Part shown: positions 3,916-24,271 of the stretch, piece after piece
How the letters are laid out: every line of letters begins with the position of its first letter
Position numbering within the stretch: the first letter of the stretch is position 1
Source: Escherichia coli
Lineage (GTDB): Bacteria > Pseudomonadota > Gammaproteobacteria > Enterobacterales > Enterobacteriaceae
DNA length: 64,000 nt
Assembly (NCBI RefSeq): GCF_044324785.1
Contig: NZ_CP172127.1
Reading direction: 5' to 3' (one strand)
Position numbers and translations under genes: made by a program
The notes under the pieces: model-generated
Database searches by the model: none
The model's input: the letters and a program-made list of their open reading frames with translations, nothing else
What the model was told of the DNA's origin: nothing

Positions 3916-4445
3916 TGGGCAATAATCTTGAGTAAGTAAAGATTGTATTTTTTTAATCGAAAACGCCTAGGGTCTCTTTCTTGAAAATCTCTTCCTAAAG
4001 TTTCAGGAGTTGCATTTAAAGTTATTTTAAATATATCTTTTGGCTTTAACTTACTTACCAATTGAGCAATGTCATTCATTTGCTCATATATTTGGCTTGG
4101 TATGGCATAGTCAAGCCAAATTAGAGAAGGTGCAGCGAAGTCGCTTTGAGTAATAAATTCACTGCTACTTAAAGGTTCTTCTCCTAAATCAATACATGAT
4201 ATAGGTTTGTTAAATTTTTGTCGTTTATGAACGTTAGCATCTACCTCTAGAGAGATCATGTTATTGATTTTTAAAGCATTATGCAGTTGTTTGAAGTCTT
4301 CTAGAAAAGGGCCACCAAACCCGATATAAACATAATCGGATATGTTTACATAGTTGTTGAGTTTTCTGAGCAACTCAATGAATAGATTTCTTTCGACAGC
4401 TTTGTGTTGTCGAAGATGATAAGGAATACTTCCCCCAGTACTCAT
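3912..4445 (-). CDS. Hypothetical protein (177 aa) with a Rossmann/class-I-methyltransferase-like N-terminal pattern
   Basis: ATG preceded by GAGAGGG and an ATGA overlap with the GHKL ATPase stop. The pattern YVYIGFGGPF ... MISLEVD ... SLIWLDY resembles beta1-Gly loop / beta2-acidic / beta4-Asp of class I MTase folds (weak inference). Confidence 0.6.
   Translation of the reverse strand: MSTGGSIPYHLRQHKAVERNLFIELLRKLNNYVNISDYVYIGFGGPFLEDFKQLHNALKINNMISLEVDANVHKRQKFNKPISCIDLGEEPLSSSEFITQSDFAAPSLIWLDYAIPSQIYEQMNDIAQLVSKLKPKDIFKITLNATPETLGRDFQERDPRRFRLKKYNLYLLKIIAQ
3948..3954 (-). other. A_AAA_AAA slippery heptamer (candidate -1 frameshift site or homopolymer indel) joining the 177-aa and 153-aa ORFs
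   Basis: The minus strand reads cga tta aaa aaa tac in the 177-aa frame, so the seven A residues sit in exact X_XXY_YYZ register. The -1 frame is open from 5 codons upstream and runs into the 153-aa ORF. A weak hairpin AATCTT-N9-AAGATT (3924-3944) starts 3 nt downstream. Confidence 0.5.
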
Positions 4446-5908
4446 TTTTTTGCCCTCTCTAAAAAATCTTCAAAGCAATAATTACCAATTTCTGTCGGAG
4501 GAACAGAATCATCATCGAAAATGAAAGTGGCAACAGTTTTTATCTCACTCAATCTTCTACTAAATTTTATTTGCTTTAAAGGGTCTGTTTCTTTAGGTAT
4601 TGGCAATGTTGGTTTGAAACTATTCCCACCAATGGATCTATGCACCCGAGACCATTTATCTTCAGGTACTATGCTATCTAGTTTGTCGTTTGTAAGAGGA
4701 ATTGTTTTAGATGTGGAACTAAACATTTGCTGGCGTTCTGGAGAGTTACTTTTCCATCTGTTAGTAAAATCTGTAAATATTTTCAAGCCTTCACGCATGA
4801 AATCTTTAGTAGCCAAATAGATATCAGAATTACCATCAATGCCTCTCTTGGTAGTAGTAATAGGTAATTTTTCAGCTTCATTAGATGTAAAAATAGCTAC
4901 GCCTGCAATTCCAACAAATTGTGTGTGATATTGTGGAACTCCTGCTTCACCCCATCCGGTAAGACGTGTCTTGTCCGCATGAACAACAACACGATCATTG
5001 CAGATAATAGTCCATCCGGCTTTCTCGGAAGTGTTACGTCCAGTAAGGAATGAATTTTCCTCATCTTCTGTCACAAAATCTCTATAGAATCCAACTGCGA
5101 TCTTTATTGAAACTCCATTAGTTTCACCTCTGTAAAAATAAGGCGTGATACCACCTTTTTTCGCTGACACAAGAGCTTCGGTATCGATAATTAATGATGT
5201 CAGATTTGGCTTGACTTCTATATCATTAATATAGACCTTGAAACCTTTATTAAGAATTAGGCTATAATGGTTTGAAACAGAATTGATTAATTTTTGTTGA
5301 AAATCACGATCAACTTTGAAATGGTTTTTTACATCGTCTCTGAGATCGTTAACTATAATTTTTACGCCCGTTGTTTTTAAATCGACATTACCACGTTCGA
5401 GATCTAGTTTCCAGTTTTTATCATTGGATAACCATTCTGGAGAAATTGTAACTTTAAATTCCTCGTCTTTTGTTTTACTTAATACTTGCGATGAAGTGCC
5501 CAACTTAAAAATAGCTCGCTTCATACCTATCCCATAAACACCAATGGTTGGGATATTATCTATGTCTCTTTCATTTGGTCTTCCCATTCGGAAAGCATAG
5601 CTTGTTGCTAAGCTTCCCGAAATTCCGCCACAATTATCTTCAATTGTAAAACCATCTTCATTAAAATTTATTTTTGAGTAAAAACCGTGGTATTTATTTT
5701 CTTCGTTTATTTCTTCATTCGATGATGAAATGGAACGAAGAGCGCCATCAAGACAGTTGTCTAATAAGTCAAGAATAGCATCTTGGAGTTCGATATCCCT
5801 GGTTAACATTTCTACAAAGAAACGTTTTGCAGGAAAAGCTTCGATGATATCGTTTGCCATAGTTATTTTAGTTCCATCTGTGTGATTACTTATAGATATG
5901 TTTACCAT
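4442..5908 (-). CDS. GHKL (Bergerat-fold, HATPase_c_3 / MutL-MORC-like) ATPase, 488 aa
   Basis: N box AILDLLDNCLDGA, G1 box EDNCGGIS, G2 box IGVYGIGMKRA. A long C-terminal region is compatible with a transducer domain. No nuclease motif recognised. Confidence 0.8.
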   Translation of the reverse strand: MVNISISNHTDGTKITMANDIIEAFPAKRFFVEMLTRDIELQDAILDLLDNCLDGALRSISSSNEEINEENKYHGFYSKINFNEDGFTIEDNCGGISGSLATSYAFRMGRPNERDIDNIPTIGVYGIGMKRAIFKLGTSSQVLSKTKDEEFKVTISPEWLSNDKNWKLDLERGNVDLKTTGVKIIVNDLRDDVKNHFKVDRDFQQKLINSVSNHYSLILNKGFKVYINDIEVKPNLTSLIIDTEALVSAKKGGITPYFYRGETNGVSIKIAVGFYRDFVTEDEENSFLTGRNTSEKAGWTIICNDRVVVHADKTRLTGWGEAGVPQYHTQFVGIAGVAIFTSNEAEKLPITTTKRGIDGNSDIYLATKDFMREGLKIFTDFTNRWKSNSPERQQMFSSTSKTIPLTNDKLDSIVPEDKWSRVHRSIGGNSFKPTLPIPKETDPLKQIKFSRRLSEIKTVATFIFDDDSVPPTEIGNYCFEDFLERAKK

Positions 5909-20206: not shown

Positions 20207-22525
20207 ATGAGCACAAAATTCAGAACCGTTATCACCACTGCCGGTGCAGCAAAGCTGGCAGCGGCAACCGCACCGGGAGGGCGGAAGGTCAACATTACCA
20301 CGATGGCCGTCGGGGATGGCGGTGGTAAATTGCCTGTCCCGGATGCCGGACAGACCGGGCTTATCCACGAAGTCTGGCGACATGCGCTGAACAAAATCAG
20401 CCAGGACAAACGAAACAGTAATTATATTATCGCAGAGCTGGTTATTCCGCCGGAGGTGGGCGGTTTCTGGATGCGTGAGCTTGGCCTGTACGATGATGCG
20501 GGAACGTTAATTGCTGTGGCGAACATGGCCGAAAGTTATAAGCCAGCTCTCGCCGAAGGCTCAGGGCGTTCGCAGACCTGTCGCATGGTCATCATCGTCA
20601 GCAGTGTGGCCTCAGTGGAGCTGACCATTGACACCACAACAGTGATGGCGACGCAGGATTACGTTGATGACAAAATTGCAGAGCACGAACAGTCACGACG
20701 TCACCCGGACGCCTCGCTGACCGCCAAAGGTTTTACTCAGTTAAGCAGTGCGACCAACAGCACGTCTGAAACACTGGCCGCAACGCCGAAAGCGGTAAAG
20801 GCCGCGTATGACCTTGCTAACGGGAAATATACTGCGCAGGATGCCACCACAGCGCGAAAAGGTCTTGTCCAGCTCAGTAGTGCCACCAACAGCACGTCTG
20901 AAACGCTCGCTGCAACACCAAAAGCGGTAAAAGCAGCATATGACCTGGCTAACGGGAAATATACCGCACAGGACGCCACCACCGCGCGAAAAGGCCTTGT
21001 CCAGCTAAGTAGCGTCACCAACAGCGATTCTGAAACGCTTGCGGCAACGCCAAAGGCGGTTAAGACAGCGTATGACCTTGCTAACGGGAAATACACTGCA
21101 CAGGATGCCACCACAGCGCGAAAAGGGCTTGTCCAGCTCAGTAGCGCCACCAACAGTGATTCTGAAACCCTCGCGGCAACGCCAAAAGCAGTGAAGTCTG
21201 CCTATGACAATGCTGAAAAACGTCTTCAGAAAGATCAGAACGGTGCGGATATTCCGGGAAAGGATACCTTCACGAAAAATATCGGTGCCTGTCGTGCTTA
21301 TAGCGGCGCTTTGAGCACTGAAGCCGGAAACTGGACAACCGCTCAGTTTATTGAATGGCTGGATTCCCGTGGTGCATTTAATCATCCGTACTGGATGTGC
21401 AAAGGCTCCTGGTCATATGCAAATAACAAAATCATTACGGATACCGGATGTGGTGATATCCACCTGGCTGGTTGTGTCGTCGAGGTCATGGGAACTAAAT
21501 CTGCAATCACTATCCGAGTGACCACGCCGACAACATCAAGCGGTGGCGGTACAACCAGCGCGCAATTCACTTACATTAATCATGGGGACGGCTACTCCCC
21601 CGGCTGGCGTCGTGACTGGAATCGTCAGGGCGACGCAATGACCGGAACGATTAATCAGGATGGCGGAAGCCAGAATGCCTATATGTCTACGGCCTTATGT
21701 TCAGGCACCAGAGGCGGCAAAAAATATCTCAGAAAGTTTCGTGGTGGAGAAGGAGACACTATCTGGCATGAAACAGTACAGGGCGGGGTAGTTCGCTGGG
21801 CGACTGGTAATACTGATGCTCAGGAAGAATTATCACTCAGCTCCGCTTATGGTCTCCGTTCAAGAGGTGAGATTACATCAAGCAGTGCTAATGGTCTGCG
21901 CATTGCTTATGGCAATTATGGATTCTTTATCAGGAATGATGGCAGCAGCACTTATTTTATGTTGACTAAATCAGGTGACAGATTAGGCACTTATAATAAT
22001 TTAAGACCACTGATTATAAATGATGCCACGGGTGCTGTATCAATGGGGCATGGCCTGAGTGTTACTGGTGATATTGCCTCAAGTACCAAAGTACGTGCCG
22101 GTAGCGGGAAAAAATTCACGGTCAGCAGCAGTAATACATCCACGAAGGAAGCCGCATTCAATTTGTGGGGAAACTCAAGTCGTCCGGTGGTGGCTGAATT
22201 AGGTGATGATGCAGGCTGGCATTTTTACAGTCAGAGAAATACAGATAACAGCATCACTTTTGCTGTTAACGGGCAGGTATCACCATCTAACTATAGTAAT
22301 TTTGATTCACGCTATGTCCGGGATATCCGGCTTGGTGGTGCTGCCACATACAAACCTGCGAACAATGGCATGACATGGACACATCAGGCACCGTCCGGGT
22401 GTGTATATTCCGGCATTATTGTTCAGGATACCGGCTCAAACTCTGCCGATAACATTGGTGGCGTATATTACAGACCGGTGCAGAAATACATTAACGGGAC
22501 ATGGTATAACGTGGCACAGGTATAA
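20207..22525 (+). CDS. H: Tail fibre protein gpH (772 aa) with an expanded internal repeat and a partly divergent distal part
   Basis: The N-terminal ~180 aa and the C-terminal end (KYINGTWYNVAQV) match remembered P2 H. The middle differs. Confidence 0.9.
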   Translation: MSTKFRTVITTAGAAKLAAATAPGGRKVNITTMAVGDGGGKLPVPDAGQTGLIHEVWRHALNKISQDKRNSNYIIAELVIPPEVGGFWMRELGLYDDAGTLIAVANMAESYKPALAEGSGRSQTCRMVIIVSSVASVELTIDTTTVMATQDYVDDKIAEHEQSRRHPDASLTAKGFTQLSSATNSTSETLAATPKAVKAAYDLANGKYTAQDATTARKGLVQLSSATNSTSETLAATPKAVKAAYDLANGKYTAQDATTARKGLVQLSSVTNSDSETLAATPKAVKTAYDLANGKYTAQDATTARKGLVQLSSATNSDSETLAATPKAVKSAYDNAEKRLQKDQNGADIPGKDTFTKNIGACRAYSGALSTEAGNWTTAQFIEWLDSRGAFNHPYWMCKGSWSYANNKIITDTGCGDIHLAGCVVEVMGTKSAITIRVTTPTTSSGGGTTSAQFTYINHGDGYSPGWRRDWNRQGDAMTGTINQDGGSQNAYMSTALCSGTRGGKKYLRKFRGGEGDTIWHETVQGGVVRWATGNTDAQEELSLSSAYGLRSRGEITSSSANGLRIAYGNYGFFIRNDGSSTYFMLTKSGDRLGTYNNLRPLIINDATGAVSMGHGLSVTGDIASSTKVRAGSGKKFTVSSSNTSTKEAAFNLWGNSSRPVVAELGDDAGWHFYSQRNTDNSITFAVNGQVSPSNYSNFDSRYVRDIRLGGAATYKPANNGMTWTHQAPSGCVYSGIIVQDTGSNSADNIGGVYYRPVQKYINGTWYNVAQV
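20738..21210 (+). repeat. In-frame tandem coding repeat (about 132 bp / 44 aa, 3 full copies plus 1 partial) inside H
   Basis: QLSSATNSTSETLAATPKAVKAAYDLANGKYTAQDATTARKGLV recurs with a few substitutions. The nucleotide copies are diverged at synonymous sites. Confidence 0.85.
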
Positions 22526-22528
22526 TTT

Positions 22529-23056
22529 ATGCAGCATTTGATAAATATAACCGCGGGTAATCCAAAAACGGTTGAACAATATCAATTGACAAAGGACTTT
22601 GATGTTGTCTGGTTTTTTACAGAAGATGGTAAGAACTGGTACGAAGAACAAAAGTATTTTGCTGATGACACGATAAAAATAGCGTACGACAAGGATAATA
22701 TTATCCGCTATGTGGAAAAAGATGTGACAGCTATCAGACCAGATGGATTAAGTGTGGTTGAAGTGGCGGATATTACTGCTAACCGACGGGCGGACATTTC
22801 AGGGAACTGGATGTTTAAGGACGGCAAAGTGATTAAACGCATTTATACGGCAGAGGAATTGCAGCAGCAGGCAGAAAACCGGAAAGCCAGACTTCTTGCA
22901 GATGCTGAATCCGTGATTTTGCCACTGGAGCGCGCTGTCAGGCTGAACATGGCAACAGATGAGGAGCGTAGCCGACTGGAAGCATGGGAACGCTACAGTG
23001 TTCTGGTCAGCCGTGTGGATCCTGCAAATCCTGAATGGCCGGAAATGCCGCAATAA
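22529..23056 (+). CDS. G: Tail fibre assembly chaperone gpG
   Basis: 175 aa directly after H, with the conserved C-terminal [28 protein letters not shown] typical of P2-type Tfa proteins. Confidence 0.85.
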
Positions 23057-23381
23057 GTGATATGATCTCTTGTGTTAGTTAACATAGCTATAGTACAGAG
23101 TAAGGCCTAATCTGACAGTCCGCTCTGTGCTAGGAGCGGACATTATCAACATCATGCTATGTTAATGTATAAAGTGAAGATAAATTGATATAATAAGGCC
23201 ACCATGAATATTTCAGAACCTTGTCAAAAGGTTTGCACATACTCTAGTCTTGCAATGTGTAGTTGATAGTTCCACTGAGGAGGTTCTTCGACATTCTTTA
23301 TAAAAATGTACATTTTCATCAATAATAAGAGGTAAAAGGGCTTTAATGGTTTTTTGTGGATGTTATTTCTACTCATAAATT

Positions 23382-23410
23382 TTGAGATAAGTATTGAGTT
23401 GAGATAAAAT
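23382..23410 (+). promoter_or_regulatory. Putative sigma70 promoter of the Z/fun-locus cargo gene
   Basis: -35 TTGAGA (23382-23387), a 17-bp spacer, then -10 TAAAAT (23405-23410), about 36 nt upstream of the ATG. An AGGA RBS lies 7 nt before the ATG. Confidence 0.55.
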
Positions 23411-23445
23411 TAAACTCGTTAAATTCACCTTTAAAAGGATAAAGC

Positions 23446-23973
23446 ATGGACTGGAAAGATCTTGCATCAACCGCTGTGTATACAGGTATGACTGATGAAA
23501 ATGAAAGCATATGGGAACGTGTTGATGGGGTTGACGTTGCCTTCATAGGTGCCTTTCTTACTGCGCACTTGAGCCTTGAAAAGTATATTACTGATTATCT
23601 TGGATTAAGATATCCTTCGTTAGCTTGGGGTGATGCAAAACTCACATTTTCACAAAAAATAGCTTTAATACAACATGAGCCTGCAACCCCCCCTTATGAT
23701 GAAATATATTTAAGAATAAAAGACTTTAACAGCATAAGAAATAAAATCAGTCATCAATTGAATTATCAGATTACGGATAAAGAAAAAAGTAAGTTTGTGG
23801 ACTTCTACATGAAGATTACTAAAGCCAGTAAAACTAAACCAAATATTGATATTGATAACATGGCAGATTTGTTGGATTTTTTCGTATCGATGACAAAATC
23901 CTATTTTGCTAGTGCTATTTCTTGTTATCACTATAATAAAAAGGTTGCAGGTAAAAGTAATAAAATTGATTAA
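23446..23973 (+). CDS. Hypothetical 175-aa protein with a HEPN-like RNxxxH motif (candidate RNase/abortive-infection effector)
   Basis: SIRNKISHQLNY (R98-H103) fits the Rx4-6H HEPN signature with the typical Asn after Arg. It is AT-rich single-gene cargo between G and FI. Confidence 0.6.
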   Translation: MDWKDLASTAVYTGMTDENESIWERVDGVDVAFIGAFLTAHLSLEKYITDYLGLRYPSLAWGDAKLTFSQKIALIQHEPATPPYDEIYLRIKDFNSIRNKISHQLNYQITDKEKSKFVDFYMKITKASKTKPNIDIDNMADLLDFFVSMTKSYFASAISCYHYNKKVAGKSNKID

Positions 23974-24148
23974 TAAAACTGGACTTAGGGATAATTAATA
24001 TATAGACGTTCTATCATTTTTAGAGTGTGCGGCAGCTCCATACATTCATGCGGATGTCAGCACCTCGCTCAAAGCAGACAGTCAGATTTGATAGCGTTTG
24101 GACTATGTAAATAGTCAGTTGGAAAATGAGTGAGTACAAATCAGGACA

Positions 24149-24175
24149 GGCGGGCGAATTGCCCGCCTTTTCTTT
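24149..24175 (+). terminator. Intrinsic terminator upstream of the FI late promoter region
   Basis: GGCGGGC-gaatt-GCCCGCC followed by TTTTCTTT. Confidence 0.75.
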
Positions 24176-24271
24176 ATCTGTTGTTTCATCCACTGACCAG
24201 CCAGGTCAAATAGCGTCTCATGCTCTGCCCAACAGAAAATAGTTGCACCCATTAACCACGGAGTTAAACGG

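Follow-up and report, generated by a model that had tools for sequence, protein, structure and literature searches.

What does a single short gene of foreign composition do between the tail fibre assembly gene G and the sheath gene FI of a P2-like prophage, where it stands without a partner gene? The question is raised by a stretch of 64,000 nucleotides (64 kb; hereafter the window) of Escherichia coli DNA (contig NZ_CP172127.1), which carries a P2-like (Peduovirus) prophage and, in the 1215 nucleotides (nt) between G and FI (23057-24271), an open reading frame (ORF) for a protein of 175 amino acids (aa). An earlier note, made from the letters of this DNA, had taken the product for a stand-alone abortive-infection (Abi) ribonuclease (RNase) of the HEPN type, and had named the 389 nt upstream of the gene as a candidate for what may restrain it. 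Because of its fold model, its conserved motif and its profile matches to HepS, a defence protein of a Salmonella prophage, we assign the protein to the HEPN group as a predicted distant relative of HepS, and we consider it very probable that it has the HEPN fold and an active site that looks functional. The gene and the codons of its motif are as follows.

23446-23973, + strand: 175-aa solo HEPN-fold gene (RefSeq WP_021517187.1, annotated as a hypothetical protein)
23737-23754, + strand: codons of the predicted catalytic Rx4H motif, R98-N99-K-I-S-H103

The ORF lies where the earlier note had placed it and is the sole non-overlapping ORF of at least 60 aa in the G-FI interval; the remaining ones measure 30-57 aa, apart from one of 73 aa that runs antisense within 23446-23973. 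Residues 96-107 of the product, SIRNKISHQLNY, contain R98-N99-x3-H103, the motif on which the note had built its case. R-x4-H alone is a weak signal, and its weight comes from conservation among distant relatives. A word-indexed protein search returns only a shallow Enterobacterales family (58-88 % identity, 59 invariant columns), and the conservation of the motif within a family of at least 58 % identity says little. An exhaustive profile search (E <= 0.001) reaches 352 relatives. Of these, 73 that share 19-61 % identity with the query were aligned: R98 and E45 are present in all 73, and N99, H103 and H41 in 72 each, with a constant R-x4-H spacing; the motif is kept in distant relatives as well. 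The Pfam matches of the relatives, all below threshold, are nearly all to HEPN families (HEPN_Cthe2314, Cas_Csm6_HEPN, HEPN_MAE_28990, RiboL-PSP-HEPN, DUF4145 and Abi_2), and a weak DUF4145 signal is common to HepS and to the family of the 175-aa protein. In PHROGs the protein matches phrog_5483, a group of unknown function.

A first AlphaFold2 (AF2) model, built on 21 close homologues, was too poor (predicted local distance difference test, pLDDT, of 53) and was replaced by a run on the 73-sequence alignment, which gave a pLDDT of 93.5 and a predicted template modelling score (pTM) of 0.84. This model has one domain, in which an N-terminal beta-hairpin (residues 10-25) is followed by an all-alpha up-and-down bundle of the HEPN type; the helix of residues 87-103 carries the motif at its end. 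It resembles the HEPN-fold structures of MtlR/YggD, HepS, HEPN toxins, AbiF and Cas13b, and Foldseek places HepS chains at the top (probability 0.95-0.99), with MtlR also in the list; a Foldseek comparison with viral structures (BFVD) was uninformative. When the family profile is compared with the sequences in the PDB, it finds HepS with E = 3.9e-7 and the HEPN domain of Csm6 with E = 0.003. An alignment of the family with the full HepS sequence, which was recovered from a viral contig, reaches 95.3 % in hhalign (E = 2.3e-8) and covers 86 of the 175 residues at 21 % identity, from the E45-bearing helix 1 to beyond the RNxxxH helix. The claim of a stand-alone HEPN-fold protein is borne out by these results and by the lack of a partner gene described below. 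The outcome that the earlier note had named as fatal, a non-HEPN fold with R98 and H103 unconserved, is the reverse of what the model, Foldseek and the residue counts give.

HepS (STM14_3211; PDB 9oij/9oik), from the Salmonella prophage Gifsy-1, was described by Sargen et al. (Nature 2026, PMC13043305) as a solo prophage HEPN protein that is constitutively expressed and non-toxic, and whose resting tetramer holds R100 and H105 apart. Its trigger is the siphovirus tail-tip protein J, which binds the terminal regions directly and opens the active sites; HepS, now active, cleaves specific anticodon loops of tRNA and the infection is aborted, R100 and H105 both being required. The host prophage Gifsy-1 escapes, as its own J is no trigger, and the set of HepS proteins has 393 members (PMC13043305). 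The protein described here is likewise a single-domain prophage HEPN protein of about 200 aa without a partner gene, and R98-N99-x3-H103 aligns with R100-N101-x3-H105 of HepS, the motif NxIRNKxxH and the acidic "ITDxE/D" turn that follows it being nearly identical in both; PADLOC 2.0 has a model for neither. On the other hand, the two proteins differ in length (175 aa here, 214 aa in HepS), share 15-18 % identity in structure-based alignments, and come from different settings, HepS from a lambdoid siphovirus and another kind of slot, the present protein from a P2-type myovirus. Because the terminal regions that sense the trigger do not align, neither the trigger nor the target of HepS can be transferred to our protein.

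The absence of a partner, as claimed in the earlier note, holds both in the window and beyond it. No ORF of at least 60 aa lies beside the gene in 23057-24271, and no neighbour gene is common to the ten genomic contexts of close and distant relatives that we compared. With 175 aa (HepS-type solo proteins being taken as those of at most 250 aa), one domain and no conserved neighbour, the protein has the organization of a HepS-type solo protein. Among the close relatives, one follows the tail fibre gene of another P2-like prophage, in the equivalent slot, where it adjoins AbiGi, one lies in an integrase island beside a PDC-S31/DUF2971 gene, and one stands directly 3' of a complete Gabija system and 5' of an Mrr-type nuclease; another shares an island of Pectobacterium with PDC-S31, a reverse transcriptase and a paralogous solo HEPN gene in tandem, and another is found in a chromosomal cassette array of Serratia. 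Distant relatives were found in an island with integrase and insertion sequence (IS) genes, next to a Dcm/Vsr restriction-modification system and HepT/MNT, and at the end of a contig. By association, these contexts fit a self-sufficient accessory gene that is enriched in defence neighbourhoods.

In the Pectobacterium island (locus L029), the second solo HEPN gene lies directly upstream of the homologue, at 4284-4781 on the + strand, and its product (97.4 % to the family in hhalign, with the motif MRNKFAH) is a paralogous solo HEPN protein and not of a partner type. A 170-aa ORF upstream of the Citrobacter homologue (L004, 5181-5690, + strand), which encodes KRNWLAH, was also considered as a partner and has no detectable relation to the family. 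The DUF2971 gene, called PDC-S31 by PADLOC, occurs near the homologue in two unrelated islands (L004, 6829-7611, - strand; L029, 7726-8643, + strand), which could be a coincidence within defence islands or a loose association. As to the known two-gene systems, the HEPN-MNT modules (HepT/DUF86) share the Rx4-6H motif with our protein, but here no gene for an MNT nucleotidyltransferase adjoins, the HepT-like Pfam family does not match, and the 175-aa protein is larger and has the N-terminal beta-hairpin. A HepT/MNT module is ruled out by the absence of the MNT gene.

The slot itself is defined by comparison with phage P2 and by its composition.

20207-22525, + strand: tail fibre gene H
22529-23056: tail fibre assembly gene G, with its stop at 23056
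23057-23145: P2 backbone 3' of G, left edge of the variable slot; it aligns with phage P2 up to about 23145 and then diverges
24272: start of sheath gene FI

The G+C fraction is 0.27-0.40 over 23100-24000, against 0.50-0.60 in the flanking phage genes. Since homology to P2 stops at about 23145 and returns at about 24054, from where it runs on through the terminator at 24148-24168 into FI, the foreign AT-rich segment is placed by this comparison at about 23146-24053. The drop in G+C and the edges of the P2 alignment thus agree with the earlier reading of this DNA as the Z/fun slot of P2 with a foreign cassette. The original occupant of the slot is Fun(Z) of P2, which excludes T5. It sits between the same genes and is bracketed by the same two hairpin elements, but the two slot genes of P2 lie on the opposite strand and its protein is unrelated to ours (0.7 % in hhalign), which rules out Fun(Z) as a relative of the 175-aa protein. 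The Z/fun slot of P2 has been named as a defence locus (PMC13586616).

Within the slot, the gene is accompanied by signals of its own.

23382-23410, + strand: sigma-70-like promoter candidate, TTGAGA-17-TAAAAT (TTGAGA at 23382-23387, TAAAAT at 23405-23410)
23435-23439, + strand: ribosome-binding site AAGGA, 6 nt before the ATG
23974-24053, + strand: untranslated 3' DNA that accompanies the gene; what follows the homologous gene in three non-P2 loci (L030, L027, L004) is 70-75 % identical to it
24148-24168, + strand: intrinsic terminator with a nine-pair stem, including seven G-C pairs, followed by a run of T

The promoter candidate agrees with the consensus at 10 of 12 positions and is the top site of the scan; its position makes it plausible. 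The ribosome-binding site is found where the earlier note had seen it, and AAAGGAT-AA is kept in five homologous loci. The terminator (-20.1 kcal/mol, z = -2.2), upstream of the FI promoter region, is likely to form the 3' end of the cassette transcript. An identical cassette is present in one sequenced phage, vB_EcoM-569R9, and, among 5426 complete E. coli genomes, in 48, each time in the chromosome. Some part of the 1215-nt query, mostly the conserved right-hand end, is matched by 968 complete E. coli genomes; of these 968 with conserved DNA adjacent to the Z/fun slot, 48 have the slot filled by the cassette.

Since it has the HEPN fold, an intact motif, distant kinship to HepS and a place in a variable slot of P2, the gene is a plausible defence gene of the HepS kind. 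Because the homology covers the catalytic core and the organization of the gene is identical, we propose a HepS-like logic. The gene would be expressed in the lysogen from its own promoter, with the transcript ending at 24148-24168; the protein may oligomerize, so that the R98-N99-x3-H103 motifs of two protomers could build a composite active site, and it would be kept inactive by its own resting conformation, with no antitoxin. A product of the infecting phage would switch it on, P2 itself being without the trigger, and the active enzyme would cut cellular RNA and abort the infection. Its substrate, by analogy with HepS, would most likely be tRNA anticodon loops; as a specific target these are a tentative suggestion, to which we give distinctly less credence than to the scheme as a whole. 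The scheme of a self-inhibited, trigger-activated solo HEPN RNase for abortive infection is one that we regard, by analogy, as reasonably probable.

The restraint might instead come from RNA, as the earlier note had supposed in pointing to the 389 nt upstream and their nested inverted repeats, and the gene would then encode a HEPN toxin held by an RNA antitoxin of the type III or AbiF-like kind. The greater part of that DNA is the following leader.

23146-23365, + strand: cassette-specific AT-rich leader, featureless, with ORFs below 60 aa only and folding not above that of shuffled sequences

Such an antitoxin is favoured by the non-coding leader, which is long and has inverted repeats, and by the absence of a protein antitoxin from the ORF survey of 23057-24271. 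The repeats are real, since a hairpin at 23118-23141 lies inside a 10-nt repeat (23079-23088 and 23156-23165), but this hairpin belongs to the conserved backbone of P2, as does the whole of 23057-23145. The leader at 23146-23365 occurs in E. coli solely alongside the cassette (49 genomes) and has no counterpart upstream of the homologues in the loci of other genera, in some of which the upstream spacer is down to about 150 nt; the only conserved upstream part is the last stretch of about 80 nt, with the promoter and the ribosome-binding site, and even this is conserved in part. No tandem direct repeats were found in the leader, the folding of the 300 nt before the gene does not exceed that of shuffled sequences (z = +0.67), and Rfam has no match upstream of the gene. 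The Abi_2 family of Pfam does not match the protein, and HepS is a precedent for a solo HEPN protein that needs no antitoxin (PMC13043305). An RNA antitoxin is therefore very unlikely, and the suggestion of the earlier note that the upstream region restrains the toxin is not supported. The AbiF/AbiD (Abi_2) proteins resemble ours as HEPN-fold Abi effectors of mobile elements, but AbiF has about 300 aa and its structure is bound to a non-coding RNA (title of entry 8vz6), whereas here there is neither an Abi_2 match nor a repeat RNA locus upstream. An Abi_2/AbiF system is ruled out by the missing Abi_2 match, tandem repeats, excess of structure and conserved leader.

Several observations weigh against the proposed self-inhibited defence RNase. 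Scans of the 175-aa protein with Pfam, NCBIfam and PADLOC give nothing above threshold, the Foldseek E-values are weak (0.09), and the best matches in the structural comparison, MtlR/YggD, are regulators and not nucleases. The N- and C-terminal sheet with which HepS binds its trigger cannot be aligned, so that about half of the protein is covered. The promoter that the earlier note had called near-consensus is present and is the best of the scan, but promoter-like sites number 6 here against 5.2 +/- 2.2 in shuffled sequences, and the match to the consensus is without statistical support. Some distant relatives lie among metabolic genes, and one of the 48 E. coli copies (L002, 3390-3918; E. coli ST2350, NZ_CP031321.1) is split by a frameshift into two overlapping coding sequences. 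On the strength of the structural matches, among which MtlR also appears in the Foldseek list, the protein might be a non-catalytic HEPN-fold regulator or adaptor like MtlR/YggD. This is quite unlikely, because R-N-x3-H and the polar pair H41 and E45 are near-invariant in a very divergent family, as in an active site (an argument that covers this family's side only), and because the genes stand in mobile and defence contexts and not in a sugar operon. The likeness to MtlR/YggD, which are annotated regulators from a wholly different genomic context, is one of fold only; Pfam and PDB profile searches find no sequence relation, which rules out membership in the MtlR family. It is also conceivable, though unlikely, that the protein is an active HEPN RNase with a role other than the exclusion of phages, as an addiction or stabilization module of the cassette or as a regulator of host or prophage RNA: homologues are found in chromosomal cassette arrays with accessory genes of the housekeeping type (L027), and the one among metabolic genes is that of L009. 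Yet the association with defence genes recurs, the same variable slot is used in two different P2-like prophages, and the cognate antitoxin that an addiction module requires is missing. That the gene is merely a decaying moron without activity, as the frameshifted copy might indicate, is hardly credible, since the other E. coli copies are intact in frame and 98-100 % conserved, and the family is kept across Enterobacterales at the identities given above.

If the proposal of a self-inhibited solo HEPN defence is true, the gene represents a second, very divergent one-protein HEPN defence beside HepS. That a known defence hotspot should house a solo-HEPN family which is divergent and unannotated is, to the specialist, expected rather than surprising. 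The family has several hundred members without a model in Pfam, NCBIfam or PADLOC, and is therefore missed by current tools. The alignment, the confident model and the obvious sites for catalytic mutants (R98, H103 and E45) make the proposal directly testable, and if its trigger and target were set beside those of HepS, it would become clear how widely the logic of the self-inhibited solo HEPN protein applies.

How such a cassette arrives in the slot is suggested by the two edges of the slot, which are formed by a 35-nt inverted repeat (23109-23143 and 24054-24088; the number of such pairs expected by chance is 0). Each arm holds one 24-nt hairpin, the left one termed B and the right one A, and the same two hairpins are present in phage P2.

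23118-23141, + strand: hairpin repeat B, left bracket, GTCCGC-TCTGTGCTAGGA-GCGGAC
24056-24079, + strand: hairpin repeat A, degenerate, right bracket, GTCAGC-ACCTCGCTCAAA-GCAGAC, where homology with all P2-like phages resumes

In a fold of 23095-23160, B forms a nine-pair stem (-19.6 kcal/mol, z = -2.1). In general, the B hairpin can be written GTCCGC-TnnGTGCCAnnA-GCGGAC and the A hairpin GTCCGC-TYYTCGCTCAnA-GCGGAC. The order B, gene, A is also seen around homologous HEPN genes in loci unrelated to P2, namely in Serratia (L027), in Pectobacterium (L029) and in the Gabija island (L030), and bracketing hairpins are found in L003 as well, at positions 905 and 2503. A scan with the exact pattern of A recovers at least 120 loci, of which all the named ones belong to Enterobacterales. 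In these loci, 56 of 65 neighbour pairs have B 9-19 nt after A, and A comes after B only at distances of at least 104 nt, mostly 0.2-3 kb. The resulting arrays read [A-spacer-B] cassette [A-spacer-B]; their units are flanked by AAY and RTT and share one orientation, and their cassettes of 0.4-3 kb (e.g. in L094, L134, L047, L125 and L027) encode GNAT acetyltransferases, LysE exporters, phosphatases (His_Phos_1), methyltransferases, LysR regulators with MFS transporters, and proteins of unknown function. This layout resembles the organization of integrons or REPINs. In E. coli, the hairpin units are of low copy number (1-5 places per genome) and lie in accessory islands. Rfam has no family that matches the hairpin doublets, and the idea that an A-B doublet forms one long attC-like hairpin was dropped, as the single strand prefers two separate hairpins.

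A candidate enzyme is a 200-residue tyrosine recombinase (PF00589; WP_001305361.1 / WP_023147793.1), whose gene lies between A and B of a degenerate unit (A-int-B) in at least four loci.

L153, 6987-7694: recombinase in A-int-B order
L111, 3332-4039: the same
L063, 5634-6341: the same
L112, 3287-3991: the same; further loci are L152 and L154

E. coli, Trabulsiella and Erwinia have recombinases of 93-97 % identity. Of 5426 complete E. coli genomes, 770 carry most of the A-int-B module, some of them on plasmids, with homology that stops at the hairpins. The neighbours of the module are likely defence genes (dynamin-family, DUF6602 and HNH), and the recombinase is absent from the 64-kb window. 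Together, these data suggest that cassettes of the P2 slot may be exchanged via the hairpins, either by action of the recombinase or by short-homology recombination, and the hairpin brackets may explain how cargo is swapped in the hotspots of P2. It is tantalizing to go further and to consider the protein as the founder of a separate solo-HEPN Abi family, with a phage trigger and an RNA target of its own that are sensed via its conserved N-terminal beta-hairpin, and the arrival of its cassette through two hairpin half-sites as part of an integron- or REPIN-like exchange that feeds phage defence hotspots, the copy of the palindromic repeat around the recombinase being the "autonomous" one; this combined proposal is rather doubtful. 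Literature searches on WP_021517187.1, on the accession of the recombinase and on an integron-like system of P2 were without result, although the title of Nilsson, Karlsson and Haggard-Ljungquist (2004) suggests that a prior description is possible.

Three minor observations concern the surroundings of the gene. At 23929-24178 (+ strand), across its 3' end, the A hairpin and the terminator, Rfam gives sub-threshold matches to the Hfq-binding small RNAs STnc150 (22 bits, with a gathering score of 60) and isrF of Salmonella; the conserved P2 backbone in this region may be transcribed as an RNA derived from the 3' untranslated region. The 45-aa ORF at 24115-24252 (- strand), which runs across the terminator and appears as a hypothetical protein in the annotation of vB_EcoM-569R9, is part of the conserved backbone and probably no gene. 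Finally, a motif of about 42 aa, GLVQLSSATNS-SETLAATPKAVKAAYDLANGKYTAQDATTARK, occurs four times in tandem in the product of gene H.

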